Of a stretch of DNA of 32,000 bases, positions 2,057-21,810 are shown in pieces. The stretch is from the NCBI RefSeq assembly GCF_051097895.1, contig NZ_CP142525.1, positions 330,001 through 362,000 on the forward strand, written 5' to 3'. Source of the stretch: Psychrobacter sp. HD31. GTDB taxonomy: Bacteria; Pseudomonadota; Gammaproteobacteria; Pseudomonadales; Moraxellaceae. The notes below the pieces were generated by a model, which worked only from the letters and a program-made list of their open reading frames with translations, had not been told where the DNA came from and did no database searches. Position 1 is the first letter of the stretch, and each line of letters begins with the position of its first letter. The position numbers were made by a program, and so were the translations under genes.

Positions 2057-3739
2057 ATGCAACTCCTTTGGTTTAAACGAGACTTACGATTAGTTGACCA
2101 CCCAGCACTGGTACGGGCGGTTAAGGCTCGTGCGAGTAATCCATCAAAACATGGTGAGGTTTTGCCCGTTTATATTTTTGAACCAGAACTTTGGCGACAG
2201 CCTGATATGAGCCATCGGCATTATGTATTTTTGTATGAATGTTTGACCGACTTGTATCGGTCGCTTAAAGCGATTGGTTGCCCTCTAGTGGTCAAGGTTG
2301 GCGATGCGATTGAGGTGTTGGAGGCATTGCATCAAAAATATGACGTGACAGCACTTTGGTCACACCAAGAAACATGGAACGGTTGGACATTTGAGCGGGA
2401 TAAACGTATCGCAAGCTGGGCAAAGGCTCGACAGATTGTCTGGTATGAGCCCTTACAATATGGTGTGTTTCGGCGGATTGACCGAATGCAAGGTCGAGAC
2501 CATTGGTCAAAGCTATGGTATGAAAAAATGAATGCCAATGTATTGCCTGCACCCCTTAGTTTAACCATGATTGATGAGCCCTCAGATGTTTTGCCAACAC
2601 CAGAAATGCTGGGTTTGGTTGCTAGTTCAGTTGACGGCATGTCAGATAAAAACCATACTGATGACAAAAACAGTGATGAGTTTGTCCCTAATGAGTTTAG
2701 GATTAATGATGACTGTCGCCAGCTTGGTGGTCGAGAGCATGGGTTAGCAACACTACAGAGCTTTTTGACATACCGAGGAGAGCGTTATACTAAGCAAATG
2801 TCATCACCTGTAACAGCGTTTGACAGTTGTTCTCGTTTGTCGCCATATTTGGCTTTTGGGGTGCTGTCGATGCGTGAGGTGTTTGTGGCGTATAAGGCAA
2901 AAAATGAGGAAATAAAAAATCGCCCTAAACAGGATAGAAGAGCTTGGGGTGGTGCCATGAGGTCGTTTTCAGCCCGCTTACGCTGGCATTGCCATTTTAT
3001 ACAAAAGCTTGAATCTGAACCAGAGATGGAGTTTTATAACTTACACCCTGTGTATGATGGATTGCGAGAGCATGAGTTTAATGAAGCGTACTTTAAGGCA
3101 TGGCAAACGGGGCATACAGGTTACCCAATGATAGACGCCTGTATGCGTGCTTTGATAGCGACAGGATGGATTAATTTTCGTATGCGGGCGATGCTGATGA
3201 GTTTTGCCAGTTATCATTTGTGGTTACACTGGCGACGACCTGCATTACACTTGGCTCGGTTATTTGTGGATTATGAACCAGGCATTCACTATAGCCAAGC
3301 TCAAATGCAATCTGGTACAACGGGAATTAACAGTATTCGAGTATATAATCCAATTAAGCAAGGAGTGGACCAAGACCCTGAAGGTGTATTTATCAAGCGT
3401 TGGATTCCTGAGCTTGCTAATATGCCAACTGAGTTTATTCATACGCCTTGGTTATGTGCCGATGATTTAATATTAGGTATTGAAGCGATGAACGGATATC
3501 CCATGCCCATCGTCGATGAAAAAACAGCGAGAAGACAAGCAACCGATAAGCTATCTGCCATCCGTAAGCATCACGTCCATGGTCATATTGCAAAACAGAT
3601 TGTACAGAAGCATGCGAGTCGCAAGGTTAGTTCAAACCACAAGGGTAGCTCAAAAAAGAAGAATAAGGTCAAAAAACCCAGAGGTGTAAGTGAAAATGCA
3701 ACAAGCACTACAGATGATGTTCAGTTGGGTTTATTTTAA
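2057..3739 (+). CDS. Cryptochrome/photolyase family protein, atypical clade (not class I PhrB-like, not DASH), with a Lys-rich C-terminal tail
   Basis: The N-terminus 'LLWFKRDLRLVDHPAL' matches the photolyase alpha/beta domain. The FAD-binding helical domain shows 'SRLSPYLAFGVLSMREV', 'GYPMIDACMRALIATGWINFRMRAMLMSF' and 'DYEPGIHYSQAQMQSG'. The tail is 'KGSSKKKNKVKKPRG'. Confidence 0.9.
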   Translation: MQLLWFKRDLRLVDHPALVRAVKARASNPSKHGEVLPVYIFEPELWRQPDMSHRHYVFLYECLTDLYRSLKAIGCPLVVKVGDAIEVLEALHQKYDVTALWSHQETWNGWTFERDKRIASWAKARQIVWYEPLQYGVFRRIDRMQGRDHWSKLWYEKMNANVLPAPLSLTMIDEPSDVLPTPEMLGLVASSVDGMSDKNHTDDKNSDEFVPNEFRINDDCRQLGGREHGLATLQSFLTYRGERYTKQMSSPVTAFDSCSRLSPYLAFGVLSMREVFVAYKAKNEEIKNRPKQDRRAWGGAMRSFSARLRWHCHFIQKLESEPEMEFYNLHPVYDGLREHEFNEAYFKAWQTGHTGYPMIDACMRALIATGWINFRMRAMLMSFASYHLWLHWRRPALHLARLFVDYEPGIHYSQAQMQSGTTGINSIRVYNPIKQGVDQDPEGVFIKRWIPELANMPTEFIHTPWLCADDLILGIEAMNGYPMPIVDEKTARRQATDKLSAIRKHHVHGHIAKQIVQKHASRKVSSNHKGSSKKKNKVKKPRGVSENATSTTDDVQLGLF

Positions 3740-3896
3740 GTTTTTACTTATCGTAAGATAATAGGGCAATGTAAAGTTAAAGTAAACGAACTATAGAAAT
3801 GGAACTTAGTTTTTTATACTACTTACTTATTAGTAACCGTGTTTTATTCCTACTATTATTATAGGTTCAGACTAGTTACTGTCTTAATTGATAAGT

Positions 3897-4187
3897 CTAA
3901 GCGTCGAGAATTGCATCCAAATTCTTCTCAATCTGTTCTTTAATCTTTGGCAAAAAGCTTTTAAACAAAAAACCTAACTTGGCGTTCATCTCAAATTTAT
4001 CTGCGGTACTGATGAACACGCCTTCTACGCCTGAGCGTTTAAATTGTACAACATCTTGGTCATCGTTACGTTCCAGTGAACAAGTCATCCGATAGTCTTT
4101 TTTGGCAGATACTATCCAGTCATCAGTAATCTTTCGGGCTTTTTCTAAGCCAAGCGTGTGTTGACGCAAAATGTGTAAGTCACTCAT
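3897..4187 (-). CDS. Polyhydroxyalkanoic-acid-system family small protein (PHA_gran_rgn-like)
   Basis: The 96-aa ORF has the pattern 'H.L....A......W.......Y...C.W......F.RSGV.G......D.F...AKLGFL...' that I recall for this family. Its ATG overlaps the TetR stop by 4 nt (ATGA at 4184-4187). Confidence 0.7.
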   Translation of the reverse strand: MSDLHILRQHTLGLEKARKITDDWIVSAKKDYRMTCSLERNDDQDVVQFKRSGVEGVFISTADKFEMNAKLGFLFKSFLPKIKEQIEKNLDAILDA

Positions 4188-4798
4188 GATTTACTCCCAA
4201 TTCCCTCAAAGCAGGTTGTGGTTACCATCTCAATTATCTTTTCGTCATCATACATGCCACTGGATTTCAAAAACCCTAATACAGGATCACAGGATCTGGC
4301 ATATAGAGTATAGAGAATACAAAGTGGCTCAACATTGGTGGTGATATTACCTATGGCTTGGGCTTGTTCTATCCATTCTCCAAGTGAGTCTGACATGGTC
4401 ACTAACATATCCATGTAATTTTCATGTGCCATTAGATGCTCACGCAGAGAGGAGTTTTCGCTAGGCAGATTGGGCATTTGCTGGTTTAGCTTGAGTCGCA
4501 TTGCCCATTGAGTAACGATTTTAAGCTTTTCAAAGGCACTTTTATCACCATGATTAAGGACAGTTATTTGCTTCAATCCTGTTTTCATAATGTCAACCAA
4601 TGCCCCAACTGCCAATGCTTCTTTACTAGGAAAGTGTCTGTATAAAGATGCTTTAGCAATACCAACGCTATCAGCAATCTCATCAACCGTCATGGCATCA
4701 TAGCCTTTGGTGGCAAGTAGGTTATTAACGGTTTCGATAATGAGTTTTTCGCGCTCTATCATCATTTTTTGTTTGAAAGTGAGTTTTTTTTCAGTCAT
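4184..4798 (-). CDS. TetR/AcrR family transcriptional regulator
   Basis: The HTH signature is 'MTVDEIADSVGIAKASLYRHFPSKEAL'. I prefer the ATG at 4798 ('MTEKKLTF...') over the track's GTG at 4873, whose extra 25 residues look non-native. The exact start is uncertain. Confidence 0.85.
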   Translation of the reverse strand: MTEKKLTFKQKMMIEREKLIIETVNNLLATKGYDAMTVDEIADSVGIAKASLYRHFPSKEALAVGALVDIMKTGLKQITVLNHGDKSAFEKLKIVTQWAMRLKLNQQMPNLPSENSSLREHLMAHENYMDMLVTMSDSLGEWIEQAQAIGNITTNVEPLCILYTLYARSCDPVLGFLKSSGMYDDEKIIEMVTTTCFEGIGSKS

Positions 4799-4894
4799 CA
4801 GGAGTGATTCCAAGTTTTCATAACACATTACCATTGATTGGTTGTTGTATGAGTAGATTATACCCAAAAGCACGAAATATTACCAATTTGTATA

Positions 4895-4916
4895 TTTTAT
4901 ACTAATTAGTATAAAA
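4895..4916. promoter_or_regulatory. Perfect 22-bp palindrome TTTTATACTAATTAGTATAAAA, candidate TetR operator
   Basis: The sequence is identical to its reverse complement. It lies in the divergent intergenic region about 97 nt upstream of the TetR ATG (4798) and just left of a sigma70-like promoter facing the fasciclin gene. Confidence 0.55.
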
Positions 4917-4921
4917 GCGTA

Positions 4922-4950
4922 TTGACTATTCTTTTTCTGGTATGTATAGT
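4922..4950 (+). promoter_or_regulatory. Sigma70-like promoter candidate TTGACT-N17-TATAGT
   Basis: Hexamers sit at 4922-4927 and 4945-4950 with a 17-nt spacer, oriented toward the fasciclin gene (start 5150). This would imply a 5' UTR of about 190 nt. Confidence 0.4.
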
Positions 4951-5149
4951 ATATTTATTCTTAGTTATAACGAACTATATTTAATACCTATTGCACTTTA
5001 ATTAGTTTTAAATATTTTTGTTTTAATCATTGTTTTTATAAAACAATAAATTGTTAGCAGGTATCTAAGGATGTTTAAGTTAAATTTAGTTTCGGTATTT
5101 TAAGGAGCTATTTTTATTCATATAAAACTGAATCAAAAAAGGACTGATT

Positions 5150-5734
5150 ATGACAGTTACAAGAAGTGTTACCAAACTAACAACAATGGCTACCGCTGTA
5201 TTAGCAACTATGGCGTTAAGTGCCTGTATGACTAGCCCAAGCCACTCAAATCACACAGAAAAATCACATGCACAGCACCATAGTAGTCATGCTGATGCTA
5301 GTAATCACAATAAAATGATGGCAAAAAATTTAGTACAAGTTGCTCAATCTGATGAAAACTTCAGTATTTTGGTTGAAGCAGTTGTAGCCGCAGGGTTAGT
5401 TGATACATTGGCAAATACGCCAAACTTAACTGTATTTGCACCAACAGACCAAGCATTTGCTAACCTGCTGGGTGAACTTGGTATGACTAAAGCAGAACTA
5501 TTGGCTAACAAACCACTATTGACCCAAGTGCTGACTTATCATGTTATTCCTGCAAAAGTATATTCACATCAAGTAAAACCAGGGAATTTAACAACGGTTC
5601 AAGGCAAACAGTTTAGCTTTGGTGCCGAAGGGAAGATTACCGATGCTCGTGGCAGAATGGCAAACTTAGTTGCCACTGATATTAAAGCCAGCAATGGTGT
5701 AATTCATGTAATTGATAAGGTTATATTGCCTTAA
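5150..5734 (+). CDS. Fasciclin (FAS1) domain lipoprotein with a His-rich linker
   Basis: The signal peptide ends in the lipobox 'LSAC'. A His-rich stretch 'SHSNHTEKSHAQHHSSHADASNHN' follows. FAS1 motifs are 'LTVFAPTDQAF', 'LTYHVIP' and 'NGVIHVIDKVILP'. SD-like AAGGA lies upstream. Confidence 0.88.
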   Translation: MTVTRSVTKLTTMATAVLATMALSACMTSPSHSNHTEKSHAQHHSSHADASNHNKMMAKNLVQVAQSDENFSILVEAVVAAGLVDTLANTPNLTVFAPTDQAFANLLGELGMTKAELLANKPLLTQVLTYHVIPAKVYSHQVKPGNLTTVQGKQFSFGAEGKITDARGRMANLVATDIKASNGVIHVIDKVILP

Positions 5735-5776
5735 GATTGATGTTTTTTTAGCATTAATTAAGTATACACAATGATT

Positions 5777-5814: not shown

Positions 5815-5847
5815 AAGACGTAGTAGATAAAAATATTAGGTAAAAAA

Positions 5848-6453
5848 ATGACATCAATACCAAAAAAATTGCTTAAAATTTTAGTCTTCGTTGCTACTTC
5901 GAGTTTGTTTATTTCTTGCTCAACTTTAGTAAGCAATAAAAAAACTAGTAATAGTTTACAAACGACAGTTACAAACGTTGATTTAGACGACTATCAAGGT
6001 ACATGGTATGAGATAGCACGCTTGCCAATGTATTTTCAGCGAAATTGTCGTAGGGATGTCACTGCCACTTATCGCAAACGTGCCGATGGCACAATTAAGG
6101 TCACCAATAAATGTATTGATAAGCGTGGTAATCAGATGGTTGCCAACGGTGTAGCAAGCGCTGATGCAAACTATCCTGATGCCAAGAATAGCCGTTTGTT
6201 AGTCAGTTTTTTGCCTAAGTCATTACAGTGGTTACCTGTGGGTAAAGGTGGCTATTGGATATTAGCATTAGATACTGATGCAAAGACAGGCAACTATAAT
6301 CATGTGCTGATAGGCTCACCCAGCCGTAAGTATCTATGGATATTGTCACGCACGCCTAATATGTCTGAAGTAGATTATCAACGATATGTGGCTATCGCCA
6401 AAGCACAAGGCTACGAGTTAGATAAATTGATTCGGACAACACACAGTGACTAG
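5848..6453 (+). CDS. blc: Outer-membrane lipoprotein Blc (bacterial lipocalin)
   Basis: The lipobox is 'FISC'. The lipocalin signatures 'YQGTWYEIARLP' and 'YLWILSRTP' closely match my memory of E. coli Blc. Confidence 0.92.
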   Translation: MTSIPKKLLKILVFVATSSLFISCSTLVSNKKTSNSLQTTVTNVDLDDYQGTWYEIARLPMYFQRNCRRDVTATYRKRADGTIKVTNKCIDKRGNQMVANGVASADANYPDAKNSRLLVSFLPKSLQWLPVGKGGYWILALDTDAKTGNYNHVLIGSPSRKYLWILSRTPNMSEVDYQRYVAIAKAQGYELDKLIRTTHSD

Positions 6454-6615
6454 TAATTAATAACCAGTCAATAAAAGTAATCAAGAATAAGCAACAAGTG
6501 ATAAGTAAAGCAAAACCTAACCAGTAATTGAACCAGTCAAACGTTACGATATTTAATAAACGATATGACTTACAATTACTTAACAAACCAATACTTAGTA
6601 ACAAGTGAGCGACAA

Positions 6616-7431
6616 ATGACCAAACGTATTCTTATTACGGGTGCAACTTCAGGCATTGGTTACCAATTGGTGATTGATTACCTAAATGCGGGTCATTATG
6701 TTTATGCAGTGGGTAGAAACCAAACTGTTTTGCAGCAACTAAAACAGCTCGGGGCTATGATTATCATTGCTGATTTAACCGACCGAAATCAGGCAATTGA
6801 CTCAATACAAAATATGTTGCAACAAACACCATTGGATGTGGTGATATGTTGTGCAGGCATTTGTCAGTATGTTGATATCACTCATATCAATTCTACTCAT
6901 ACTACTAATAGTAGTAACAGTGCCAGTCAAACTATCAATACAATGTCCTCAGCTTCATCAGAGTTATTAGGGTTTGATAGTGCTAAGATAATGGACGTGA
7001 TGAATACCAATTTTGGTACGTTGGTACATACCATTGAAGCAGTATTGCCTTATTTACAGCAATCAAAAGGACGATTGGTTGCACTGGGTTCAGCATCGGC
7101 ATTTGTACCCTTTGTTCGTGCTGAAGCATATGCCAGCTCTAAATCAGCGGTGCATTATCTGATTAAAACCTTACAACTGAGCCTAAAGCCATATGATATA
7201 GACGTGAGTTTGGTGATACCAGGATTTGTTGATACGCCAATGACGGCTCAAAATGATTTTGACATGCCATTTTTGCAGACAGTAGAACAAGCAAGCCAAG
7301 CGATTAGAAAAGGTATCGAAAATGGTGAGGATGTGATTGAGTTTCCAAAAAGGTTGACTGTTCCCTTAAAAACACTTGGCATGTTACCCAATGTAGTTTG
7401 GGAGCGTGTATCGGATAGGTTGAATAAATAA
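6616..7431 (+). CDS. SDR family oxidoreductase (first gene of the lipid-modification operon)
   Basis: The motifs are 'ILITGATSGIGYQL' (TGxxxGxG) and 'YASSKSAVHYL' (YxxxK). I prefer the ATG at 6616 to the track start at 6565. An S/T/N-rich insertion 'HINSTHTTNSSNSASQTINTMSSASS' is present. Confidence 0.85.
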   Translation: MTKRILITGATSGIGYQLVIDYLNAGHYVYAVGRNQTVLQQLKQLGAMIIIADLTDRNQAIDSIQNMLQQTPLDVVICCAGICQYVDITHINSTHTTNSSNSASQTINTMSSASSELLGFDSAKIMDVMNTNFGTLVHTIEAVLPYLQQSKGRLVALGSASAFVPFVRAEAYASSKSAVHYLIKTLQLSLKPYDIDVSLVIPGFVDTPMTAQNDFDMPFLQTVEQASQAIRKGIENGEDVIEFPKRLTVPLKTLGMLPNVVWERVSDRLNK

Positions 7432-7443
7432 TTGAGAATATGC

Positions 7444-9180
7444 ATGAGCAATATAGCAAAAACGACAAACTCATCTAAAAAACGTATCGCCATCATTGGT
7501 TCGGGCATATCAGGGTTAACTTGTGCGCATTATTTGGTAAAAGACCATGATGTCACCATCTTTGAAGCCAATGAGTATTTGGGTGGACATGTGAATACCA
7601 TAGATGTGGAGATTGCTGATACCGTTGGACGGTTTAAAAAGAGCACACACATAGAAACCTCTGCGATTGATACAGGGTTTATTGTGTTTAACGAACGCAC
7701 TTATCCCAATTTTTTTCGCTTGCTTGATGAACTGAATGTCGCATTTCAAAAAACGGACATGAGCTTTTCGGTTAAGAATCCTACTATTAACTTTGAGTAC
7801 AATGGTCATACATTAAACAGTCTGGTATCACAGCGTAAAAATATCTTGAGTCCGTCTTTTTGGCGATTTGCAACAGATATTCTGAGTTTCAATAAGCATA
7901 TCAAACAGCTTAGGCAATCTTATCAACAGCTTGAGCAAACTATACAAGAATTAACCACACAAGTTGCCAACACTAACAGCAAGCGTAAAGTTAAAAATTT
8001 AACCAAGCAACTGACTGCTAAACAAGCAAAGCTAGATGGTTTGTCATCTCAAACACTTGGCGATTATCTAGCCACACAAAAATATGGCAAGTTGTTTGAA
8101 GATAATTATTTGTTGCCAATGGTATCAGCGATTTGGTCGATGGGTCTTGAGGATAGCAAATCTTTTCCACTGATATTTTTTGCTCAGTTTTTTGATAATC
8201 ATGGATTGCTAGATGTGGTTAATCGTCCGCAATGGTTTACGATTCAAGGTGGCTCTAAACAGTATGTCAATAAATTGGTAAAACGCTATGCCAAGATGGG
8301 AGGCAAGGCATTGGTCAATTCACCTGTGCAGTCGGTACAGCGTATGACAGACGGAGTTAGCATTGCTTATCAAGTGAATCAAAACATGGATATTGGCAAG
8401 AACATCAACACGGACTCGGTAGGAAAAGCAACCAAAACTGCTAAGTTTGATGAAGTGATATTTGCCTGTCATGCTGATGTGGCAAAGCGTCTATTAACTG
8501 ATATTAGTGAGCAGGAACAACAGGTATTAGAGGCGTTTAACTTTACGGATAACCAAGCCATTTTGCATACAGATACCAGTGTACTACCAAATAAACCACT
8601 GGCATGGGCGAGCTGGAACTATTTGTTAAACGACTCTTCGAGCAAAGCTAAGATAACTGACGATACAAAAGTAATTGAAGAAACGCATTGTGGTAACTTT
8701 AAACCAGTGCTGACTTATCACATGAATATTTTACAACGACTGGTTAAAAAGCATAACTATTTGGTGACATTAAACGAGCCTGTCAATGAATTACAAGTGA
8801 TTAAACATATTGATTATCGTCATCCTGTATATGATGTCAATATGACCATGGCTCAAAAACGTTGGGAGTATATCTCAGGCGATGCTTCTGTTAATCAGAG
8901 TACGCACTTTGCGGGTGCTTATTGGTTTAACGGTTTTCATGAAGATGGTGTTCGTAGTGCATTACGTGTGTGTGCAAGTCTAGGTGTGAATGTTGATATT
9001 TTGGATAAGGTAGACCCAAGCCATCTAAACAATACGATTGAACCACATCCAATATTCACTTATAAAAATATACCTAGTAAAGCGCATAAAAATAAGGGTG
9101 GCAAAAACCGTGCTAAACTAAATAAACGTCAAGTGCAATCAGCAACGACGAATACCCAGCTAAACCAACTGTTTAGTTAA
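7444..9180 (+). CDS. NAD(P)/FAD-dependent oxidoreductase, amine-oxidase-like (COG2907-type; the family I recall for the UfaD desaturase)
   Basis: The dinucleotide fold is 'RIAIIGSGISGLTCAHYL ... FEANEYLGGH'. Gene order SDR-flavoprotein-DUF1365-CFA-like is typical. The ATG at 7444 is preferred; a TTG at 7432 abuts the SDR stop. It carries a coiled-coil-like insertion and a basic C-terminal tail. Confidence 0.85.
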   Translation: MSNIAKTTNSSKKRIAIIGSGISGLTCAHYLVKDHDVTIFEANEYLGGHVNTIDVEIADTVGRFKKSTHIETSAIDTGFIVFNERTYPNFFRLLDELNVAFQKTDMSFSVKNPTINFEYNGHTLNSLVSQRKNILSPSFWRFATDILSFNKHIKQLRQSYQQLEQTIQELTTQVANTNSKRKVKNLTKQLTAKQAKLDGLSSQTLGDYLATQKYGKLFEDNYLLPMVSAIWSMGLEDSKSFPLIFFAQFFDNHGLLDVVNRPQWFTIQGGSKQYVNKLVKRYAKMGGKALVNSPVQSVQRMTDGVSIAYQVNQNMDIGKNINTDSVGKATKTAKFDEVIFACHADVAKRLLTDISEQEQQVLEAFNFTDNQAILHTDTSVLPNKPLAWASWNYLLNDSSSKAKITDDTKVIEETHCGNFKPVLTYHMNILQRLVKKHNYLVTLNEPVNELQVIKHIDYRHPVYDVNMTMAQKRWEYISGDASVNQSTHFAGAYWFNGFHEDGVRSALRVCASLGVNVDILDKVDPSHLNNTIEPHPIFTYKNIPSKAHKNKGGKNRAKLNKRQVQSATTNTQLNQLFS

Positions 9181-9288: not shown

Positions 9289-9771
9289 ATGACAGATACC
9301 ATTTATCAATTTAATGCAGACACCTTAACAGGTCAAAACAAAGATTTTAGCGAGTATGCAGGCAAGGTGTTGCTTATTGTTAATACTGCCAGCAAATGTG
9401 GCTTAACGCCTCAATACGAGGGTTTAGAGCAATTACATAAAGACTATCACGACAAAGGACTGGAAGTCATTGGCTTTCCGTGCAATCAATTTGGTCACCA
9501 AGAACCAGGTGATGCAGGTGAAATCACAGAATTTTGCCAACTTAACTATGGTGTCAGCTTTCAGATGATGGATAAAATTGATGTTAATGGTGACAATGCC
9601 CACCCAATTTACAAATGGTTAAAATCCCAAAAAGGTGGATTAATAACCGACGCCATTAAGTGGAACTTTGGTAAATTTTTGGTTGGAAAAGATGGCAAAG
9701 TAGTCAAACGCTATGCACCTACTACCAAGCCAGAAGCCATTGCCAGTGACATTAAAAAGCTGCTTGGCTAA
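9289..9771 (+). CDS. gpx: Glutathione peroxidase (Cys-type)
   Basis: Motifs are 'LIVNTASKCGLTPQY' (peroxidatic Cys), 'GFPCNQFGHQEPG' and 'WNFGKFLV'. SD AAGGA lies 7 nt upstream. Confidence 0.93.
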   Translation: MTDTIYQFNADTLTGQNKDFSEYAGKVLLIVNTASKCGLTPQYEGLEQLHKDYHDKGLEVIGFPCNQFGHQEPGDAGEITEFCQLNYGVSFQMMDKIDVNGDNAHPIYKWLKSQKGGLITDAIKWNFGKFLVGKDGKVVKRYAPTTKPEAIASDIKKLLG

Positions 9772-9798
9772 GTTTTTATCTTAAAAGTATTGAAAACA

Positions 9799-13482: not shown

Positions 13483-13953
13483 ATGCAAACAGAAGAACTC
13501 AATCCCCTTAACCTTACTAGCAAAAAAAGTAGACATCAAGATAAACGTCTTTTCTTTTTATTCAATATGGCACGCCATCATTTATTTGGCTATGTAGATG
13601 CCGAATGTGATGCACAATTGGGTATTTCGGTTACACAGGCTGGTGCTTTACTCTATATTGCAAAAAAAGAAGGGTGTTATCAAAAAGATTTGGGTGATGC
13701 TTTGGGCTTAAAAAAATCAACAGTCACCGGGTTAGTGTCTCGAATGGAAAAAAATGGCTTGGTTAAACGTAAAGCGTGTAAACAAGATGGTAGGGCATCA
13801 ACATTATTTTTAAGTCAACTTGGTAATGAAATAATCCCACGAATCATACTTTTTATTAAATCTATTAATGATGAGTTTTTATCAGATTTTAGCGATGAAG
13901 AAATGGATGTGATTTTTAAATTTTTAAATAGAATAATAAAAAAATACTCATAA
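13483..13953 (+). CDS. MarR family transcriptional regulator
   Basis: The winged-HTH is 'QKDLGDALGLKKSTVTGLVSRMEKNGLVKRK...DGRAS'. Confidence 0.88.
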   Translation: MQTEELNPLNLTSKKSRHQDKRLFFLFNMARHHLFGYVDAECDAQLGISVTQAGALLYIAKKEGCYQKDLGDALGLKKSTVTGLVSRMEKNGLVKRKACKQDGRASTLFLSQLGNEIIPRIILFIKSINDEFLSDFSDEEMDVIFKFLNRIIKKYS

Positions 13954-14484: not shown

Positions 14485-14671
14485 TATTGTTCCTAAATGT
14501 TGATGGTTATATAGTTCTTTGATTAAGGCTACCCAAACCAATTATAAAATGTTACTATCTAGTATAATAATTAACTAATAAGTATTCAATTGCTTGTTGT
14601 ATTAAAACTTAAAGAATATAAAGTGAATAATAACAAGGTTATCATTAGATAAGTCGAATAAGGACCCCCAT

Positions 14672-16297
14672 ATGTCGGAAGCTACGTCCTCGGATACACA
14701 TTCCTTATTTTATAAACGCAAAATCAGCCTTATCTTTCCACATCAGCTGTTTGCTGATGTTAGTCTATGGCAAGATGAATGCTACTTAATAGAAGAAAAT
14801 CTATTTTTTACCCTTTATCCCTTTCATAAACAAAAGCTTGTCTTGCATCGTGCCAGCATGAAAGTCTATGAAAAAAAGCTGATAGAAGCAGGTAAAACCG
14901 TCATTTATATTGATTCAAGCCACAAACACAGCGATTGTCGAAAATTAATCAATAGCTTTGAAATAAAACATGTCGATGACCCTGAACACATCCATTTGAT
15001 TCATTATATTGATGTAGTAGATGATTGGCTGCGTATGCGATTGCAACAAGCATTACTTACAAAAAATATTCGTTTTCGTCCTGCACCAAGTCCCATGTTT
15101 TTAAATCCAATATCGGTATATTGGCAGTTTTTTGCCCCAGATATGAGCCATATAAACCATGTAGACACAGCGAGTAAACCTGTTCAAAAACAACTATTTC
15201 ATCATAATTTTTATATCCAAGCTCGCAAGCGTGAAAGAATTTTATTAACAGAAGACAATAAGCCCATTGGCGGGCAATGGTCGTTTGATGCCGAAAACCG
15301 TAAAAAATACCCACGCAAGCAAACACCGCCCAAAGTCAATTTTCCACCAGTGACAGAGCATTACCAAAATGCAGTGGCGTATATTCAAACCAACTTTGCC
15401 AATCATTATGGCAACATCAATACTGACTTTCGTTATCCTATTAATCATGAGCAAGCAGAACAGTGGTTTGAAGACTTTTTACGTACTCGATTTGCTGACT
15501 TTGGCGTGTATGAAGATGCCATTGTCGATAGTGAAAGCATACTCAACCACAGTGTACTAACACCCATGCTAAACATTGGCTTACTGACACCTGAGCAAGT
15601 TATCAATCGCACATTAGAGGTTGCAGAAGAATATCAGATACCACTAAATTCGCTTGAAGGATTTGTTCGTCAGATTATTGGTTGGCGTGAATTTATGTAT
15701 GGTTTATATGAGTCGGTGGGTAGGCAACAACGCACCACCAATTTTTGGGGCTTTACTCGCAAAATCCCGAAAAGTTTTTATACAGGACAGACGGGTATTG
15801 AACCGATTGATAGCACCATCAAAAAAATTCTTGAAACGGGTTATTGCCACCATATCGAACGCTTGATGGTATTGGGCAATTTTATGTTGTTATGCGAGTT
15901 TGACCCAGATGAGGTGTACCGTTGGTTTATGGAGCTGTTTGTTGATGCCTATGATTGGGTAATGGTACCTAATGTGTATGGTATGAGCCAGTTTGCCGAC
16001 GGTGGTCTAATGGCGACTAAGCCGTATATCAGTGGCAGTAACTACCTTGCGAAGATGAGTAATTATCAAGTTAAATCAAAAGGCGAGTCTGTGGCATGGG
16101 CAAAAACATGGGATGGACTGTTTTGGCGATTTATGCAGGAGCAAAGAGAGTTTTTTGGACAAAACCCTCGCATTGGGATGTTACTAACCCTGTGGGATAA
16201 GATGGATGATAGAAAGCAACAAGCACATTTACAGCAGGCTGAACAGTTTCTAGCAAAATTAGATGCAGAGTTAAGTACTGAACTAAATACAAAATAG
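14672..16297 (+). CDS. Cryptochrome/photolyase family protein of the COG3046 (FeS-BCP / bacterial (6-4) photolyase PhrB-CryB) type, lacking Fe-S ligand cysteines
   Basis: Motifs are 'LIFPHQLF', 'GWREFMYG', 'GYCHHIERLMVLGNF', 'DAYDWVMVPNVYGMSQFADGG' and 'KPYISGSNYLAKMSNY'. SD AAGGA lies upstream. Confidence 0.9.
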   Translation: MSEATSSDTHSLFYKRKISLIFPHQLFADVSLWQDECYLIEENLFFTLYPFHKQKLVLHRASMKVYEKKLIEAGKTVIYIDSSHKHSDCRKLINSFEIKHVDDPEHIHLIHYIDVVDDWLRMRLQQALLTKNIRFRPAPSPMFLNPISVYWQFFAPDMSHINHVDTASKPVQKQLFHHNFYIQARKRERILLTEDNKPIGGQWSFDAENRKKYPRKQTPPKVNFPPVTEHYQNAVAYIQTNFANHYGNINTDFRYPINHEQAEQWFEDFLRTRFADFGVYEDAIVDSESILNHSVLTPMLNIGLLTPEQVINRTLEVAEEYQIPLNSLEGFVRQIIGWREFMYGLYESVGRQQRTTNFWGFTRKIPKSFYTGQTGIEPIDSTIKKILETGYCHHIERLMVLGNFMLLCEFDPDEVYRWFMELFVDAYDWVMVPNVYGMSQFADGGLMATKPYISGSNYLAKMSNYQVKSKGESVAWAKTWDGLFWRFMQEQREFFGQNPRIGMLLTLWDKMDDRKQQAHLQQAEQFLAKLDAELSTELNTK

Positions 16298-16324: not shown

Positions 16325-16699
16325 ATGGATAACAAACCCCAATCATCATCAAAAGACATCCTTTACTACGACAGCGACTGTCCTATTTGTTCTGCTGAAA
16401 TGGATAAGCTGTGTCGGCTAAAACAGGATTCGCTAGAATTGATACCAATCAATCAAATTACCAAAGAAACAGCAGGTGATATTGACGAATCAGAGATTAA
16501 CAACCTGTATGATGAGCTGCATATCCGCACAAGCGATGGCAAGTGGCTAAAAGGCTATGAGGCAAATATCTACGCATGGCAACAAACTAAATATGCACCC
16601 TTTGCTAAATGGCTTGGCAAACCGCCATTGTCTTGGTTTGGGAAGTTGAGCTATCGAATTTGGCTTAAGTGGTATCGGTGGCAACGTAATAAAAGATAA
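16325..16699 (+). CDS. Thiol-disulfide oxidoreductase DCC family protein (DUF393)
   Basis: The N-terminal motif is 'YYDSDCPICSAEMDKL' (DxxCxxC). Confidence 0.85.
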   Translation: MDNKPQSSSKDILYYDSDCPICSAEMDKLCRLKQDSLELIPINQITKETAGDIDESEINNLYDELHIRTSDGKWLKGYEANIYAWQQTKYAPFAKWLGKPPLSWFGKLSYRIWLKWYRWQRNKR

Positions 16700-16734: not shown

Positions 16735-17589
16735 ATGACAATAACTGAACAACAAATTTTCACCCCCGCTATCATATTTTTTGACATTGACGACACCTTA
16801 AGTCGTGATGGTATTTTAGCCGAGCATAACAAATCCACCTTAGAGCAACTTGCCAAAACCGAAATTAAAGTGGTGATTGCCACGGGGCGGGCTAAGCCTA
16901 TGTTGCCAGAGGACATCATCGACTTGCATGACAGCGGTGTGATAGATGCCATTATCTGTATGAATGGGCAATATTCATTTACCAAAAATGCCCAACAAGA
17001 CCAAAAGATTAAGCATTATCCACTTAGCAAAGCACAAGCCAAGCTGATTGTAGACATTTGCCAACAACAAGACATTATTTATAAGTTTGAATCCACAACA
17101 CACATTGGTTGGTCAGGTAACTCACCAAGGCATGAGCTGTTGCGTAAACTCATCGATGAAAACCATCACTTTATGATTGATCCAGATTTTTATAAAGCCA
17201 ATGATGTGTATCAATGTTCTGTTTTTTTTGAAGGCGATAATGAGCAACTTGCACCAGTTAATTTTGCCGATTATGGATTAAAGCTTGTGCATTGGCATGC
17301 GATGGGAGCAGATATCTTGCCTATAGAAGCATCAAAAGCCAGAGCCGTTAAAGATATTTGTGACTATTACGAGGTATCGCCTGCTGACTGTATGGCATTT
17401 GGCGATGGCAATAATGACATTGAAATGTTTGAGCTAGTCGGTTGTCCTGTGGCGATGGCAGATGGCGCAGAAATATTAAAACAAACGGCTTTAGCTCACA
17501 ATGGTAAAGTAACAGGCTCTATAGAAGAAAACGGCATACAAACGGCATTAACAGAATATGGTGTATTTAATGATGACAGCGGTAATTAA
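16735..17589 (+). CDS. Cof-type HAD-IIB family phosphatase
   Basis: HAD motif I is 'FFDIDDTLS'. Also present are 'VIATGR' and motif IV 'FGDGNNDIEMF'. Confidence 0.9.
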   Translation: MTITEQQIFTPAIIFFDIDDTLSRDGILAEHNKSTLEQLAKTEIKVVIATGRAKPMLPEDIIDLHDSGVIDAIICMNGQYSFTKNAQQDQKIKHYPLSKAQAKLIVDICQQQDIIYKFESTTHIGWSGNSPRHELLRKLIDENHHFMIDPDFYKANDVYQCSVFFEGDNEQLAPVNFADYGLKLVHWHAMGADILPIEASKARAVKDICDYYEVSPADCMAFGDGNNDIEMFELVGCPVAMADGAEILKQTALAHNGKVTGSIEENGIQTALTEYGVFNDDSGN

Positions 17590-17615: not shown

Positions 17616-17789
17616 ATGATGAAAAAATCAGGCAGTAATAAGACCATCAAAAAATCTAATTTACCCAGTAAAGTTTGTCCTGTTTGTAAACGCCCCTTCA
17701 CATGGCGTAAAAAATGGCAAAACAATTGGGACGAGGTCGTTTATTGCTCCAAACGCTGTTCGGGTAATAAGCAAGCCATTCATCCATAA
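17616..17789 (+). CDS. DUF2256 zinc-ribbon-like small protein (57 aa; not in the supplied ORF track)
   Basis: I translated it by hand as [57 protein letters not shown]. The 'CPVC..PF.WRKKW...WD.V.YCS.RC' pattern matches DUF2256, a family I recall as frequently adjacent to photolyase genes. Confidence 0.8.
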
Positions 17790-17874: not shown

Positions 17875-19332
17875 ATGACCATCTCAAAGTCTAATAAAAC
17901 CATCGGCATGGTCATACTCCATAATGACTTACGCATACATGACAATGCCACTTTGCTAAAAGCATCAACGGTATGCGACAGTTTGCTGATTGTGTATCCA
18001 AAACAAAAGCTGTTTTTGCCCACTCAAAACCGAGGGCAAGAATTTCATGCCAGCCAACATGAAAAAATGGGCAAAGCAAGGGCATGGTTTTTATTGCAAA
18101 GCTTGTCAAACCTTGACAAATCGCTACAACAGCTTGGCAATGGGTTGCTATATCTTGATGCAGAGAAAGCAGGCGTGACAACCTTTAATCAGATTAAAAC
18201 ATTGATTAACGAGTTTAATGTTGGGCATGTTTTTGTCAGTAGTACGGCAGATTATGACCAAAATCAGGGCTACCGTTTACTTGCACAGAACACCAATACT
18301 CAGTGGTATTACGCCACTACTCACAGTATTTATGAGACACGACCAACAGAAACGTTGCCAAAAGTGTTTACTGAGTTTCGTAAATTGGTAGAAAAATCGC
18401 ATCCCTGTTTGACAGCGAAAAATGATTTACTAATTTCGCCCACCCCAAGCGTGTTACCCAGTATGCCAGTGATGGCGGCTAACTATCTAAAAAGTGTGCA
18501 ATTGCCCAAGATTTTGGATGTCGCTAATTCGGATTTCGATAATGCAGATATTGCTGAGCTTGCTGATAATCAATCGATAACATCGCCTTTTATTGGAGGC
18601 GAACATCAAGCATTGGCACATTTACAAAGCTATTTTCAGTCGGATGCTCCGAAAACTTATAAAGAAACCCGCAATACCTTATTTTTAAACGATGATACGA
18701 CAACGCAAGCGTCATGGTCACAGACAACACGCTTTGCACCTTGGCTTGCCAATGGGTCGCTATCCGTACGAGTGTTACTCAACCGATTAAGGCAGTATGA
18801 GCGTGAAAAAGTGGCGAACGATTCGACTTATTGGATTTGGTTTGAACTACTTTGGCGAGAGTATTTTTATTGGTATGCCAATACGCACGGTAAAAAGCTG
18901 TTTCGTATGCGTGGCATAAGTGGCAAACCCTCTCGCAAGTGCTTTTATGGCGAACGCTACGAACGTTGGAAAAATGGCAGTACCCCTTATCCAATTGTGA
19001 ATGCTTGTATGAAGCAATTAAAAGCCACTGGCTATATGTCTAACCGTGGGCGACAGCTCGTTGCCAGCTGTTTTATTCATGAGCTTGGTTTGGATTGGCG
19101 GTATGGCGCAAGTTATTTTGAACAACAGCTGATTGATTATGATGTGGCGAGTAATTGGGGCAATTGGCAATATTTAGCAGGCGTGGGAGCAGACCCACGA
19201 GGCTCTCGTAAATTTAATCTTGATAAGCAAACGCAACAGTATGACCCAGAGGGTAAGTTCATTAAAAAATGGGGCGGTAATGACGATGCCACTGTGCTTG
19301 ATAGTGTGGACATGGTGGACTGGTATGTTTAA
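17875..19332 (+). CDS. Cryptochrome DASH
   Basis: Motifs are 'TRFAPWLANGSLSVR', 'WFELLWREYFYW', 'YPIVNACMKQLKATGYMSNRGRQLVASCF' and 'DYDVASNWGNWQYLAGVG'. Confidence 0.92.
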   Translation: MTISKSNKTIGMVILHNDLRIHDNATLLKASTVCDSLLIVYPKQKLFLPTQNRGQEFHASQHEKMGKARAWFLLQSLSNLDKSLQQLGNGLLYLDAEKAGVTTFNQIKTLINEFNVGHVFVSSTADYDQNQGYRLLAQNTNTQWYYATTHSIYETRPTETLPKVFTEFRKLVEKSHPCLTAKNDLLISPTPSVLPSMPVMAANYLKSVQLPKILDVANSDFDNADIAELADNQSITSPFIGGEHQALAHLQSYFQSDAPKTYKETRNTLFLNDDTTTQASWSQTTRFAPWLANGSLSVRVLLNRLRQYEREKVANDSTYWIWFELLWREYFYWYANTHGKKLFRMRGISGKPSRKCFYGERYERWKNGSTPYPIVNACMKQLKATGYMSNRGRQLVASCFIHELGLDWRYGASYFEQQLIDYDVASNWGNWQYLAGVGADPRGSRKFNLDKQTQQYDPEGKFIKKWGGNDDATVLDSVDMVDWYV

Positions 19333-19384
19333 TTATGTTGAATTAAAGTGCTAAATTTGCATATTGAATGAGGATATAAAAATA

Positions 19385-19852
19385 ATGAAAAAGACGGCAA
19401 CAACGCAAAAAATATTATTCCCTTATTTAACCTTGGCAGGGGCAACTCCGTTTATTGTCTGTATGTTTTTACTGCTCTTTGGCTTAAACCATCTGCCATA
19501 TTTGGGAGAAACGACTCAAGTATTAAGGGGGTACGGCATACTTATCGCTTCATTTATGTTGGGTAGCCAATGGGGGAGTCACTTAAGCCTATCAGAAAAT
19601 AATCCATGGTTACTTCGATTGCCTATTTTTACCAATATCATGGCAGTTTTACTATGGTTGGCATATTTGGTTTTATCTGTTGATGTCTTTTTATTGCTTT
19701 TATCTGTATGTTTTTTAGCAATTTTATTTATTGATTACCACCTAAAGCAAGCCAAAATAATTGGGCGAAATTATTATCGCATTCGAGTAATAGTAACAAT
19801 GATTGTGGTTGCATCATTACTTGTGAGTGCTTTAACACTTTTTTTATTTTAA
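19385..19852 (+). CDS. DUF3429 family membrane protein
   Basis: It has four hydrophobic segments and 'YGILIASFMLGSQWG', matching the DUF3429 signature (YG..I.SF.GG..WG). The ATG at 19385 has GAGGA upstream; the track uses a TTG at 19364. Confidence 0.8.
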   Translation: MKKTATTQKILFPYLTLAGATPFIVCMFLLLFGLNHLPYLGETTQVLRGYGILIASFMLGSQWGSHLSLSENNPWLLRLPIFTNIMAVLLWLAYLVLSVDVFLLLLSVCFLAILFIDYHLKQAKIIGRNYYRIRVIVTMIVVASLLVSALTLFLF

Positions 19853-19898: not shown

Positions 19899-21062
19899 AT
19901 GACATCACAAAAAATTGCCATCATCGGTGCAGGTATTGCAGGATTAACCGTTGCTCATCGCTTACAGACTCTGCCCAATGTGCAAATTACCCTGTTTGAA
20001 AAAGCCAGAGGCGTCAGTGGTCGAACCTCCACACGCCGAGCAGAACCTCATCACTTTGACCATGGTGCTCCATTCTTTATTGCAAAATCTGATGAATTTC
20101 AAACCTTTATTAACCCTATGCTAGAGGCAGGCGTATTAAGCGATTGGCAAGCCAAAGTAGCTGAAGTATCTGGCACACAAGTGACTGACCAATATCAATG
20201 GCAAGCCAATCGATACTTTGTCGCTCAACCAAAAATGAACGAAATGGCGAAGTTTATCGCCAAACAACTGACAAATAATGTAGAAATAAAGCTGGGTACA
20301 AGAGTCGGCAAGATAGAAAAAGTCGATTTAGACGTTGAAAACTTAGAGCATTCACAGGACACAAACGCTGAGACTCAACATAGTACACAAGATAGTAGTC
20401 AACAGTGGCAGTTGACCAGCGATACAGGCGCTAAAGTCAATAAAGCAATCGGCACACCATTAGCATTAGGTGAACAAGGCGACTTGGGTAATTTTGATTG
20501 GGTAATTTGTACCGCTCCTCCCGAACAGGCAGTTGAACTCATTCCAAGCAGTTTGCCTTTTTATCCTCGTATTGAACAAAGTAAAACCGATGGTTGCTAT
20601 GCCTTAATGTTAGGGTTTGACACGCCACTAGATATTAATTTTGATGTGGCATTAATCAAAGATTCTGCTTTAAGTCGCATCGTTGTAAATAGCCAAAAAC
20701 CCATGCGACCTGATGCCTATTCCTTGACCATTTTATCCAGTAATCAATGGGCAGAACAGCACATAGATGCAGACCAAGAATGGGTTAAATCTGAATTACT
20801 CAAAGCCACTAGTGATGTCTTAAAAATTGAGCCAGAAAAGCTACAACAAGCAACGCATATGGGCATGCACCGCTGGCGTTATGCCAATACTAGCCCTGAG
20901 CTTGAGCAATATAATCAAAATCAATCCGCCTACTTATTAGATACCGAGGCACAACTTGGCGTTGCTGGCGACTGGCTTATTAAAGGCAGTGTGGAAAATG
21001 CGTTTAGGAGTGGGGATGCGTTGGCAAATAGCCTGATTAAAGCACTGGCTGATTCACAATAA
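19899..21062 (+). CDS. NAD(P)/FAD-dependent oxidoreductase (COG3380-like)
   Basis: The dinucleotide fold is 'KIAIIGAGIAGLTVAHRL ... FEKARGVSGR'. The C-terminus has 'GVAGDW'. An acidic/Q-rich insertion 'DVENLEHSQDTNAETQHSTQDSSQQ' is present. Confidence 0.85.
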   Translation: MTSQKIAIIGAGIAGLTVAHRLQTLPNVQITLFEKARGVSGRTSTRRAEPHHFDHGAPFFIAKSDEFQTFINPMLEAGVLSDWQAKVAEVSGTQVTDQYQWQANRYFVAQPKMNEMAKFIAKQLTNNVEIKLGTRVGKIEKVDLDVENLEHSQDTNAETQHSTQDSSQQWQLTSDTGAKVNKAIGTPLALGEQGDLGNFDWVICTAPPEQAVELIPSSLPFYPRIEQSKTDGCYALMLGFDTPLDINFDVALIKDSALSRIVVNSQKPMRPDAYSLTILSSNQWAEQHIDADQEWVKSELLKATSDVLKIEPEKLQQATHMGMHRWRYANTSPELEQYNQNQSAYLLDTEAQLGVAGDWLIKGSVENAFRSGDALANSLIKALADSQ

Positions 21063-21087
21063 CTGATAATAGAGGAATCTGTTCGTT

Positions 21088-21810
21088 ATGAAAAACATCG
21101 CTATTTTTGGCAGTACAGGAGCAATTGGACAAGCCATCACTGATGAGCTAGCAAACCGTTATCCCAATGCTCACATTCATGCCATTTCTCGCTCAGCTCC
21201 AACTGGTAATTTAACCAAAGATAATATCAGTCATCATCAAATTGACTTGCAAGATGAAGAATCTCTAAAACAGCTGGCAAGACAAATTACCAATGAGCAC
21301 AAATTAGACTATGTGTTTGTTGCCACAGGAACTTTGCATAATGACGGGGTACAACCAGAAAAATCGTTACGCCAGTTGTCAATGCGTAACTTTGAACAGC
21401 TGTTTGCGGTGAATACCATTTTACCTGCCATTATCGCTAAGCATTTTATACCCAAGTTAAGTAAAGAAAGTAAGTCAGTTTTTGCGGTGTTGTCGGCTCG
21501 GGTCGGCAGTATCTCGGATAATCGTTTGGGTGGCTGGTATGCCTATCGTGCATCAAAATCAGCACTAAATATGATAGTCAAAACGGCAAGTATCGAAACC
21601 AAACGAAGTAATCCAAACGCCATTCTCGTTGGTCTGCATCCAGGTACGGTGGACAGTGAGTTGTCCAAACCCTTTCAAAAAAATGTACCCGAAGGTAAAC
21701 TTTTCACTGCCGAGTTCTCAGCTAAATCGTTAATTGCGGTGACTGATAAATTAGCCAGTGAAGACTCGGGCAAGTGTTTTGATTGGGCTGAGGTTGAGGT
21801 AGGGGCTTGA
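21088..21810 (+). CDS. SDR family oxidoreductase (CsgA/C-factor-like subgroup)
   Basis: Motifs are 'IAIFGSTGAIGQAI' and 'YRASKSALNM' (YxxxK). SD GAGGAA lies upstream. Confidence 0.88.
   Translation: MKNIAIFGSTGAIGQAITDELANRYPNAHIHAISRSAPTGNLTKDNISHHQIDLQDEESLKQLARQITNEHKLDYVFVATGTLHNDGVQPEKSLRQLSMRNFEQLFAVNTILPAIIAKHFIPKLSKESKSVFAVLSARVGSISDNRLGGWYAYRASKSALNMIVKTASIETKRSNPNAILVGLHPGTVDSELSKPFQKNVPEGKLFTAEFSAKSLIAVTDKLASEDSGKCFDWAEVEVGA

Follow-up and report, generated by a model that had tools for sequence, protein, structure and literature searches.

A putative photoprotection island of Psychrobacter sp. HD31 with three cryptochrome/photolyase genes, no ECF11-type promoter, and a TetR-family gene divergent from its lipid operon

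Introduction

In bacteria that are not phototrophs, the defense against light and singlet oxygen is known to run through extracytoplasmic function (ECF) sigma factors of the ECF11 type or through photosensory repressors of the LitR/LOV type. For the sigmaE-ChrR system, furan fatty acids have been proposed as second messengers. Here we analyzed a 32-kb stretch of the genome of Psychrobacter sp. HD31 (hereafter the window), in which about 20 kb bring together three genes of the cryptochrome/photolyase family (CPF), a membrane-lipid operon, and a TetR-family gene. Neither ECF11 nor photosensory control elements were found at the locus, and we lean toward the view that it is a photoprotection island in which the TetR gene occupies the slot of the regulator, with local repression of sigma-70-type promoters.

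The core regulon of sigmaE-ChrR in Rhodobacter sphaeroides consists of rpoE-chrR, a photolyase (RSP2143, phrA) and a homolog of cyclopropane fatty acid (CFA) synthase (RSP2144), and RSP1091-1087; apart from rpoE-chrR, its families are matched by those of the window, as a previous sequence-only reading of this DNA had stated (PMC3546557, PMC6852236). The rpoE-chrR pair typically adjoins the RSP1091-type operon or is divergent from it, and in that species it is transcribed divergently from RSP1091-1087 (PMC3546557). The two loci therefore have in common the photolyase, the CMAS-type methylase, the UfaD and UfaO families, a short-chain dehydrogenase/reductase (SDR), and a regulator divergent from the lipid operon (PMC3546557, PMC7380195). 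However, R. sphaeroides has the ECF pair and the promoter TGATCC-N16-CGTA, while the window has a TetR gene in the divergent slot; R. sphaeroides carries one CPF and its genes lie at several loci, while the window holds three CPFs and a glutathione peroxidase gene inserted in the operon.

Three further systems are close to this locus. In Shewanella oneidensis, the RpoE2-ChrR regulon includes a 13-gene operon (SO_3386-SO_3374) with ybgA, phrB, and cfa, the pair SO_4169 (DPRP)-SO_4170 (SDR), and the glutathione peroxidase pgpD (PMC4336711). The consolidated photolyase and lipid operon, the DPRP-SDR pair, and a glutathione peroxidase are features that the window shares, whereas all Shewanella units have mapped or predicted TGATCC/CGTAAT promoters, the Shewanella peroxidase is periplasmic and not cytoplasmic and in-operon as in the window, and YbgA/RudS (DUF1722) has no counterpart in the window. 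In Pseudomonas, a light-induced pmlR1-phrB-SDR-FAD oxidoreductase-ufaM cluster, together with cryB and folE, goes with class II LitR proteins (PplR/PmlR) and a short LOV protein, and its sigma70-type promoters are repressed by a local DNA-binding protein (PMC9758184). There, too, the photolyase stands with an SDR, an FAD oxidoreductase, and a CMAS gene ("ufaM"), but the repressor is a MerR-family LitR released by LOV; the window has TetR and MarR instead, and its CPFs are the only photoreceptors in view. Vibrio cholerae likewise is not a phototroph and has three CPF genes, and it responds to blue light by inducing its phr genes together with a homolog of CFA synthase and thiol peroxidases (PMC5241685); these genes, however, are scattered on two chromosomes under ChrR/sigmaE and MerR-like control, neither of which is seen in the window. 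The sequence-only reading had seen such genes merged into one island here. This merging is not new: phrB stands together with the SDR/FAD/DUF1365/CMAS genes in Shewanella (SO_3374-3386, with SO_4169-4170; PMC4336711) and in the pmlR1/pplR1 region of Pseudomonas (PMC9758184), and four of the loci compared below (L036, L045, L048, and L030) are comparably consolidated.

Results

Regulators and promoters of the island

The open reading frame (ORF) map of the window, with about 30 main ORFs and a few small ones, was scanned against Pfam and NCBIfam, and all gene families that the sequence-only reading had named were placed at the positions it had given (Table 1). The island can be read as four modules, namely CPF1; a membrane-lipid module made up of the fasciclin and Blc lipoproteins, an SDR (SDR1), the UfaD-like and UfaO-like proteins, the CMAS-family methyltransferase, DUF2177, and the inserted glutathione peroxidase; DUF4442 with MarR; and a putative eight-gene DNA-photorepair operon of DPRP, DCC, HAD, DUF2256, Cry-DASH, DUF3429, a flavoprotein, and a second SDR (SDR2). 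In other proteobacteria, the same functional ensemble stands under ECF11 sigmaE/RpoE2-ChrR or under LitR/MerR with LOV/BLUF.

None of the scanned ORFs in the window carries a Sigma70_r2/r4, a zf-HC2/cupin anti-sigma, or a ChrR domain, and none carries a MerR/LitR, B12-binding, LOV/PAS, or BLUF domain. TetR and MarR are the sole recognizable regulators, which bears out the earlier statement that they are the only ones in view and that an ECF sigma factor is absent there. An Rfam scan of the window at the gathering threshold, which covers riboswitch and small-RNA control, returned a tRNA-Val alone.

ECF11 promoters were sought with the RpoE2 consensus TGATCC-N16-CGTAAT (PMC4336711), with spacings of N15-17 and at two stringencies. 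No site of at least 9/10 was found anywhere in the window, and the looser threshold yielded nothing convincing upstream of any operon (48 matches, against 91 in shuffles). For comparison with other genomes, the CMAS protein was used as an anchor, with one genome per species, and the window proteins were mapped onto 43 loci; loci are cited here by their L numbers, and L044, L046, and L048 are relatives from assembled read sets. As a positive control, the same scan was applied to these loci. Perfect ECF11 sites directly precede the orthologous operon in Thalassotalea, in Paraglaciecola, and at two Cellvibrionaceae loci, situated 210 to 680 bp upstream of SDR1 (L024, L026, L030) or about 900 bp upstream of the operon (L029), but no site was found in this position at any of 21 Psychrobacter loci. 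Therefore, the absence is a feature of the lineage and not a failure of the scan, and the difference in wiring from ECF11 systems looks real. The differently wired photoprotection system that the sequence-only reading had proposed as its central idea is thus plausible, with ECF11 promoters absent and the TetR pairing kept in L044, and it may now be attached to concrete cis-elements; control of the island by TetR and MarR, in contrast, is a part that we can only infer.

The TetR gene and the small PHA_gran_rgn gene overlap by 4 nt and are read as co-transcribed, and both recur in L044 at 91 to 95% amino acid identity (TetR at 95%, in the same position). The true start of TetR is probably near 4834, giving 216 aa, as in the L044 gene call. 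MarR has its own promoter-like site (13425-13454), the -10 of which is overlapped by an inverted repeat (13449-13458/13470-13479). Because MarR is not kept next to DPRP in L046, where it is not found upstream of orf79/DPRP, we take it to act locally, on its own gene and perhaps on DUF4442.

Candidate operators

The TetR gene is divergent from the fasciclin/Blc-SDR-UfaD operon, and between the promoter-like sites of tetR (4886-4857, minus strand) and fasciclin (4922-4950, plus strand) lies a 22-bp perfect palindrome with the arms TTTTATACTAA and TTAGTATAAAA. The palindrome is a candidate TetR operator; it recurs in L044 with one change and directly precedes Blc there. Its 16-mer has no second copy in the window at three or fewer mismatches. 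A related element is found in the control region between orf79 and DPRP, where a block of 46 to 48 nt is 100% identical between the window and L046, while the flanks agree by eye at about 40 to 55%. Within this block, TACTA-TC-TAGTA at 14553-14564 has the same 5-2-5 core (TACTA-N2-TAGTA) as the tetR palindrome, and it overlaps a perfect plus-strand TATAAT as well as the -10 within the promoter-like site of orf79 (14589-14561, minus strand). The exact core TACTANNTAGTA occurs twice in 32 kb, at 4900 and in the orf79/DPRP block, both times in a divergent control region; a copy with one mismatch is found at 3824, in the gap where the convergent genes CPF1 and PHA_gran_rgn both end. These sites are suggestive, although not conclusive, of one TetR-type protein that has targets at the lipid operon and at the photolyase operon alike.

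Another repeated element, the exact 10-mer ACGAACTATA, has three copies (3786-3795, 4970-4979, and 12821-12830), all of them intergenic and on the plus strand. The copy at 12821 forms the right arm of TATAGTT-N8-AACTATA, an element that overlaps the promoter-like -10 of DUF4442. As a shared operator this 10-mer was rejected, since the half-site spacings are 6, 8, and 10 nt, no wider similarity is seen, and it is not present in L044, which lacks the DNA segments holding the copies at 3786 and 4970.

The lineage-specific 79-aa product of orf79 has two homologs among 5.8e9 proteins, one of them 100% identical (Psychrobacter sp. HD31) and the other 68% identical (L046, 1291-1530), and at both of these places the gene is divergent from DPRP. 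Its AlphaFold2 (AF2) model is all-helical with a pLDDT of 89.5. The protein has no match in Pfam or NCBIfam, no fold match in the PDB for this model, and no evident helix-turn-helix, and the idea of orf79 as a hidden third regulator was rejected for want of family, fold, or helix-turn-helix evidence. Psychrobacter sp. M13 carries a 168-aa gene in this position, to which orf79 bears no relation.

Neighborhoods in relatives and other lineages

The core SDR-UfaD-UfaO-CMAS(-DUF2177) is kept in 40+ loci, which comprise the 21 Psychrobacter loci and many other lineages. The DPRP and lipid-operon proteins of the window are closest to those of Psychrobacter, at 55 to 71% identity, which marks the source as a divergent member of the Psychrobacter group by sequence. 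In the Psychrobacter loci, no CPF, TetR, MarR, fasciclin, or Blc gene lies within 10 kb of the core operon; in strain DM8, for example, the operon stands between tRNA genes and ferritin/uvrB. The typical DPRP locus of Psychrobacter is elsewhere and reads parC-DPRP-BLUF(-)-HAD or BLUF-168-aa gene-DPRP-HAD.

Three relatives keep parts of the island. L044 has PKS-CPF1-PHA_gran_rgn-TetR-Blc-SDR-UfaD at 90 to 96% amino acid identity; L046 has orf79-DPRP-(290 aa)-DCC-(88 aa)-HAD at 68 to 89% identity, with another upstream neighbor in the place of MarR; and L048 has DPRP(-) beside a contiguous FADox2-SDR2-CPF1 at 64 to 75% identity. The conservation of the neighborhood is therefore partial, in these three loci, and does not extend to the block, since typical Psychrobacter keep the lipid core and DPRP-BLUF-HAD apart. 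Comparable islands are seen in gammaproteobacteria that are unrelated: L045 has SDR2-CPF1-CPF-DPRP adjoining BLUF and a bacteriophytochrome; L036 has SDR2, DPRP, BLUF, CPF, RudS/DUF1722, glutathione peroxidase, CMAS, DUF1295, UfaD, a second CMAS, and a B12-type LitR/CarH; and L030 has RudS-MerR-SnoaL-photolyase followed by the lipid operon. Because the same families are co-located repeatedly in unrelated lineages, the linkage is recurrent and not due to chance, while the particular 20-kb arrangement is, from these comparisons, lineage-specific and still changing.

Within these neighborhoods, SDR2 adjoins CPFs in L045, L036, and L048 and is a recurrent partner of DPRP-type and CPF1-type genes. 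A BLUF gene stands beside DPRP in typical Psychrobacter (L047, 8439-8918; L049, 4262-4735; L050, 1934-2407) and in unrelated islands (L036, 2515-2952; L045, 15081-15515), and this position is held by the DCC1-like gene in the window and in L046. DPRP is paired with HAD across Psychrobacter (L046, L047, L049). Below threshold, the HAD protein matches a YcsE-related phosphatase of riboflavin metabolism (73 bits, with the cut-off at 220), and it may conceivably help to provide an antenna chromophore of the lumazine or flavin type.

Lipid operon and antioxidant genes

In R. sphaeroides, RSP1091 is the desaturase UfaD, RSP1090 (DUF1365) is the furan-forming UfaO, and RSP2144 is the methylase UfaM, which converts vaccenate to 11Me-12t-18:1; the in-operon CMAS protein RSP1089 is dispensable and ufaM lies at another locus, and R. 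palustris has the three genes in the order ufaD-ufaO-ufaM (PMC7380195). According to its domains and synteny, the amine-oxidase-type flavoprotein of the window is a candidate UfaD-like fatty-acyl desaturase, whose order with DUF1365 and CMAS is kept across loci, and the DUF1365 protein is a candidate UfaO-like furan-ring-forming oxygenase. SDR1 is in the position of the RSP1087-type SDR of R. sphaeroides and is syntenic with FADox1 (the UfaD-like protein), DUF1365, and CMAS in 30+ loci. The window CMAS gene follows the ufaO-like gene, as ufaM does in R. palustris; its product scores 255 bits against a cut-off of 400 for the Cfa equivalog, is 62 to 66% identical to the Psychrobacter orthologs, and may be either of the UfaM type or of the RSP1089 type. 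The earlier count of at least eight island members without an assigned function was thus too high, since the functions of UfaD and UfaO have been assigned in R. sphaeroides, and with them those of the window flavoprotein and DUF1365 genes, and since UfaM-type methylases have been characterized (PMC7380195), the DPRP family has solved (6-4) photolyases, and DASH proteins are single-stranded DNA (ssDNA) photolyases.

The glutathione peroxidase gene is inserted between the UfaD-like and UfaO-like genes, a position in which it is not found in the Psychrobacter loci; it adjoins the operon in L031, L035, L036, and L043. Blc is the first gene of the lipid operon in L044, where it is 79% identical and where no fasciclin gene separates it from tetR. 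Comparison of window 4951-5847 with L044 12633-12789 places the fasciclin gene and its terminator-like hairpin as inserted between the conserved tetR-proximal promoter region and blc, which suggests a recent replacement or insertion. On this comparison, the fasciclin gene is a strain-specific cassette, and its insertion may leave blc and the lipid operon no longer driven by the tetR-proximal promoter. In R. sphaeroides a fasciclin protein (RSP1409) is said to be a sigmaE target, which we could not confirm from the literature. As for DUF4442, Psychrobacter sp. DM8 has a 4HBT thioesterase in the corresponding place, but the idea that the two are counterparts was rejected, as their sequences show no similarity.

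Three cryptochrome/photolyase genes

The three CPF genes lie within 17.3 kb, for which we estimate p of about 2e-4 under random placement in a genome of about 2 to 3 Mb (our own estimate, 3*(w/L)^2). CPF1 falls below every NCBIfam cut-off, and its best PDB matches are plant CRY2/CRY1 and Escherichia coli Phr (about 1e-38, in the FAD domain only); the positions of E. coli W382 and N378 are seemingly not conserved in the HMMER alignment. The sequence-only reading had called this protein atypical, which is right insofar as it fits no curated class, but its family is very large, with 8000+ homologs, which are bacterial proteins of about 500 aa annotated as photolyases. The extra length of CPF1 consists of lineage-specific insertions in the linker and the tail. 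In contrast to CPF1, the Cry-DASH protein passes the curated threshold of TIGR02765.

The DPRP protein is homologous to PhrB/CryB in its N-terminal and FAD-binding domains, both of which are present, and it matches solved prokaryotic (6-4) photolyases (PDB 8ijy, 1.6e-84; 3zxs, 1.4e-73; 4dja, 3.3e-73; also 7ykn). The FeS-BCP/CryPro proteins, such as Agrobacterium tumefaciens PhrB, R. sphaeroides CryB, and the Caulobacter crescentus (6-4) photolyase, share these domains and ligate a [4Fe-4S] cluster by four cysteines, whereas in the window protein the positions of PhrB C350, C438, C441, and C454 are occupied by P, Q, S, and K. Its earlier assignment to the FeS-BCP type therefore holds for family membership and fails for the cluster ligands (0/4 Cys). 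The ligands are likewise 0/4 in all 120 best homologs, which come from Psychrobacter, Marinicella, many Bacteroidota (Flavobacteriia, Saprospiraceae, Cytophagia), and others, and the alignment points to a large [4Fe-4S]-free subclade within the DPRP/(6-4)-photolyase family. The cluster is treated as a hallmark of the prokaryotic (6-4) photolyase group (PMC12082625, PMC8476157), and a limited literature search found no description of a subclade without these cysteines. Such a subclade bears on the role of the cluster in these enzymes.

Proposed regulation and alternative explanations

We incline to the reading that the locus is a photoprotection island without ECF11 or photosensory control elements of its own, where the TetR gene and its small PHA_gran_rgn partner hold the slot divergent from the lipid operon. 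The promoters would be of the sigma-70 type and under local repression, and the modules would be co-regulated. TetR would bind the 22-bp palindrome and probably also the TACTA-N2-TAGTA repeat in the orf79/DPRP block, and it would respond to a lipid-derived ligand and not to light directly. By analogy with Rhodobacter, methylated or furan-type acyl chains from the lipid module would serve to scavenge singlet oxygen, and the module would also reduce lipid peroxides. If a ligand-sensing TetR does control these same effectors, the effector module would be portable between regulatory systems, and the locus would offer a simple system, with one repressor, two operators, and a small genome, for the signal that reports photo-oxidative membrane damage.

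Several points speak against this proposal. The view is confined to 32 kb, and other parts of the genome may encode an ECF11 pair or a regulator of the LitR, BLUF, or LOV kind; the modules are transcribed separately and end at terminators of their own; and the composition of the island varies among relatives, with fasciclin and MarR as variable members. With regard to the operators, the 16-mers of the two core sites differ at 4 positions, and the exact core is expected about 0.02 times in 3.8 kb of intergenic DNA, a figure that is optimistic because the core was defined after both sites had been seen. The tetR palindrome lies between the predicted -35 boxes and does not cover them, which could mean that TetR activates or that the promoters were called wrongly; promoter-like sites are not commoner in the window than in shuffled sequence and for this reason serve only as guides. 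The organism of L046, in which the block is conserved, may lack this TetR, and production of furan fatty acids is not assured because the CMAS protein is not settled as UfaM. A more far-reaching version of the proposal, which we consider unlikely, would have an ancestral sigmaE-ChrR, LitR, or BLUF control replaced by the TetR-family repressor, possibly with PHA_gran_rgn, which would sense a lipid product of singlet-oxygen damage such as an oxidized furan or methylated acyl chain; the related palindromes would couple the lipid and photolyase operons, the latter with its Fe-S-free protein of the (6-4)-photolyase family, so that membrane photodamage and not light would trigger DNA photorepair.

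The island might instead answer to a conventional regulator of the light or singlet-oxygen response encoded outside the window, be it ECF11 sigmaE-ChrR acting through a diverged promoter, LitR/MerR, or BLUF with a partner, which would leave TetR (with a lipid- or PHA-type function) and MarR (acting on DUF4442 and itself) as incidental local regulators and would make the island one more member of a well-known regulon. We judge this somewhat unlikely. It would agree with the limited view of 32 kb, with the BLUF gene that typical Psychrobacter carry between or beside DPRP and HAD (L047, L049, L050), with the BLUF, LitR/CarH, or MerR genes of other islands (L036, L030, L045), and with the absence of MarR next to DPRP in L046; the three intergenic copies of ACGAACTATA could be sites of an unseen factor, but those at 3786 and 4970 are in segments that L044 lacks. 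Against it, no ECF11-type promoter precedes any operon of the window, though the scan finds perfect sites in other genera, the window has no MerR, BLUF, LOV, or B12 domain, and the pairing of TetR with the operon is conserved together with the palindrome in L044.

It is also conceivable, but in our judgment very unlikely, that the genes have no common regulation and became adjacent through rearrangement or reduction with piecemeal insertion, so that the units are expressed independently or constitutively. The island does comprise eight or more transcription units, each separate and with its own terminator, the fasciclin gene is inserted relative to L044, L046 has the extra genes of 290 and 88 aa and a different upstream neighbor, and typical Psychrobacter carry the lipid operon at one locus and DPRP-HAD at another, with no CPF, TetR, or MarR nearby. 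However, the families co-localize in unrelated lineages in different orders (L036, L045, L048, L030, L034-L035), which argues for selection on the linkage; they are co-induced by light or reactive oxygen species in Pseudomonas, Vibrio, Shewanella, and Rhodobacter (PMC9758184, PMC5241685, PMC4336711, PMC3546557); and the estimate given above makes it improbable that three CPF genes came to lie within 17 kb by chance.

Gene map and neighboring features

The GC content of the window is even, at about 38 to 40%, and no large repeats or mobile-element signature were found around the island in the window. From promoter-like and terminator-like sites, the predicted units are CPF1 (probably a transcription unit of its own), PHA_gran_rgn-TetR, fasciclin, Blc to DUF2177, DUF4442, MarR, orf79, and DPRP to SDR2. 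Hairpins end the fasciclin unit (5776-5808, 15-bp stem), the DUF4442 unit (13348-13382), and the DPRP-SDR2 operon (21865-21898), and a bidirectional terminator with a 13-bp perfect stem (12684-12712) follows DUF2177, the last gene of the lipid operon. DUF4442 is monocistronic, with a promoter-like site at 12804-12832.

Table 1. Genes and sequence elements of the island in the window
Feature	Coordinates	Strand	Evidence
CPF1, cryptochrome/photolyase-family flavoprotein, 560 aa	2057..3739	+	FAD_binding_7 6e-66; DNA_photolyase 1.5e-23
PHA_gran_rgn small protein, 96 aa	3897..4187	-	PF09650 3e-22; TIGR02610 42.8 bits (cut-off 40.25)
TetR-family regulator	4184..4873	-	TetR_N 1.3e-15; no specific NCBIfam equivalog
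Perfect palindrome, 22 bp	4895..4916		Repeat search, 100% complementary
Fasciclin-domain lipoprotein	5150..5734	+	PF02469 5e-31; lipobox LSAC
Blc-type outer-membrane lipocalin lipoprotein	5848..6453	+	Lipocalin_2 1.8e-45; NF007786 110 bits (below cut-off); lipobox ISC
SDR1	6565..7431	+	adh_short 2e-35
UfaD-like FAD-dependent amine-oxidase-type flavoprotein (FADox1), candidate	7432..9180	+	Amino_oxidase 2.5e-21; NAD_binding_8 5.5e-14
Glutathione peroxidase, BtuE/Gpx type	9289..9771	+	GSHPx 5e-45; without signal peptide, predicted cytoplasmic
DUF1365 protein, UfaO-like candidate	9790..10749	+	PF07103 2e-51
CMAS-family SAM-dependent methyltransferase	10814..12184	+	CMAS 1.4e-77
DUF2177 membrane protein	12229..12645	+	PF09945 2.3e-33
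DUF4442 hotdog-fold protein	12880..13323	+	PF14539 7.8e-47
MarR-family regulator	13483..13953	+	MarR_2 1.3e-15; weak similarity to OhrR, SlyA, others
orf79, 79 aa	14245..14484	-	No Pfam match
Invariant block, 46-48 nt	14543..14590		Alignment with L046
DPRP/COG3046-type CPF	14672..16297	+	PF04244 4e-42
DCC1-like thiol-disulfide oxidoreductase	16325..16699	+	PF04134 6.7e-13
Cof-type HAD-IIB phosphatase	16735..17589	+	Hydrolase_3 2.3e-42; TIGR00099 142 bits (cut-off 137)
DUF2256 small Cys-rich (zinc-ribbon-like) protein	17616..17789	+	PF10013 2.1e-21
Cry-DASH (ssDNA cyclobutane pyrimidine dimer (CPD) photolyase/cryptochrome)	17875..19332	+	TIGR02765 456.6 bits (cut-off 317.05)
DUF3429 membrane protein	19364..19852	+	PF11911 2.5e-18
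FADox2, second amine-oxidase/NAD_binding_8 flavoprotein	19899..21062	+	Pfam
SDR2, PRK09009/CsgA-like	21088..21810	+	adh_short; NF006532 249 bits (below cut-off)

Upstream of CPF1, an ORF that runs off the 5' end of the window (18-1907) encodes the ketoreductase (KR)-acyl carrier protein (ACP) end of a megasynthase. In L044, the full megasynthase of 2459 aa (1687-9856; thioesterase, AMP-binding, ACP, ketosynthase (KS), ..., KR, ACP) is directly upstream of CPF1 and is preceded by a 4'-phosphopantetheinyl transferase gene and a gene of the carnitine-acyltransferase family. Between MarR and orf79, a short ORF on the plus strand (14033-14242) matches the C-terminal half of DUF2805 alone (E 6e-6), with in-frame stops upstream, and is probably a gene remnant. 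Downstream of the island, an SBF-family transporter ORF and a Pyr_redox_3 flavoprotein ORF on the minus strand (21990-24153) overlap by 101 nt as listed, and the start of the downstream SBF gene is therefore probably mis-assigned. The 733-nt gap after these two ORFs holds the tRNA-Val(GAC) gene (24756-24832).

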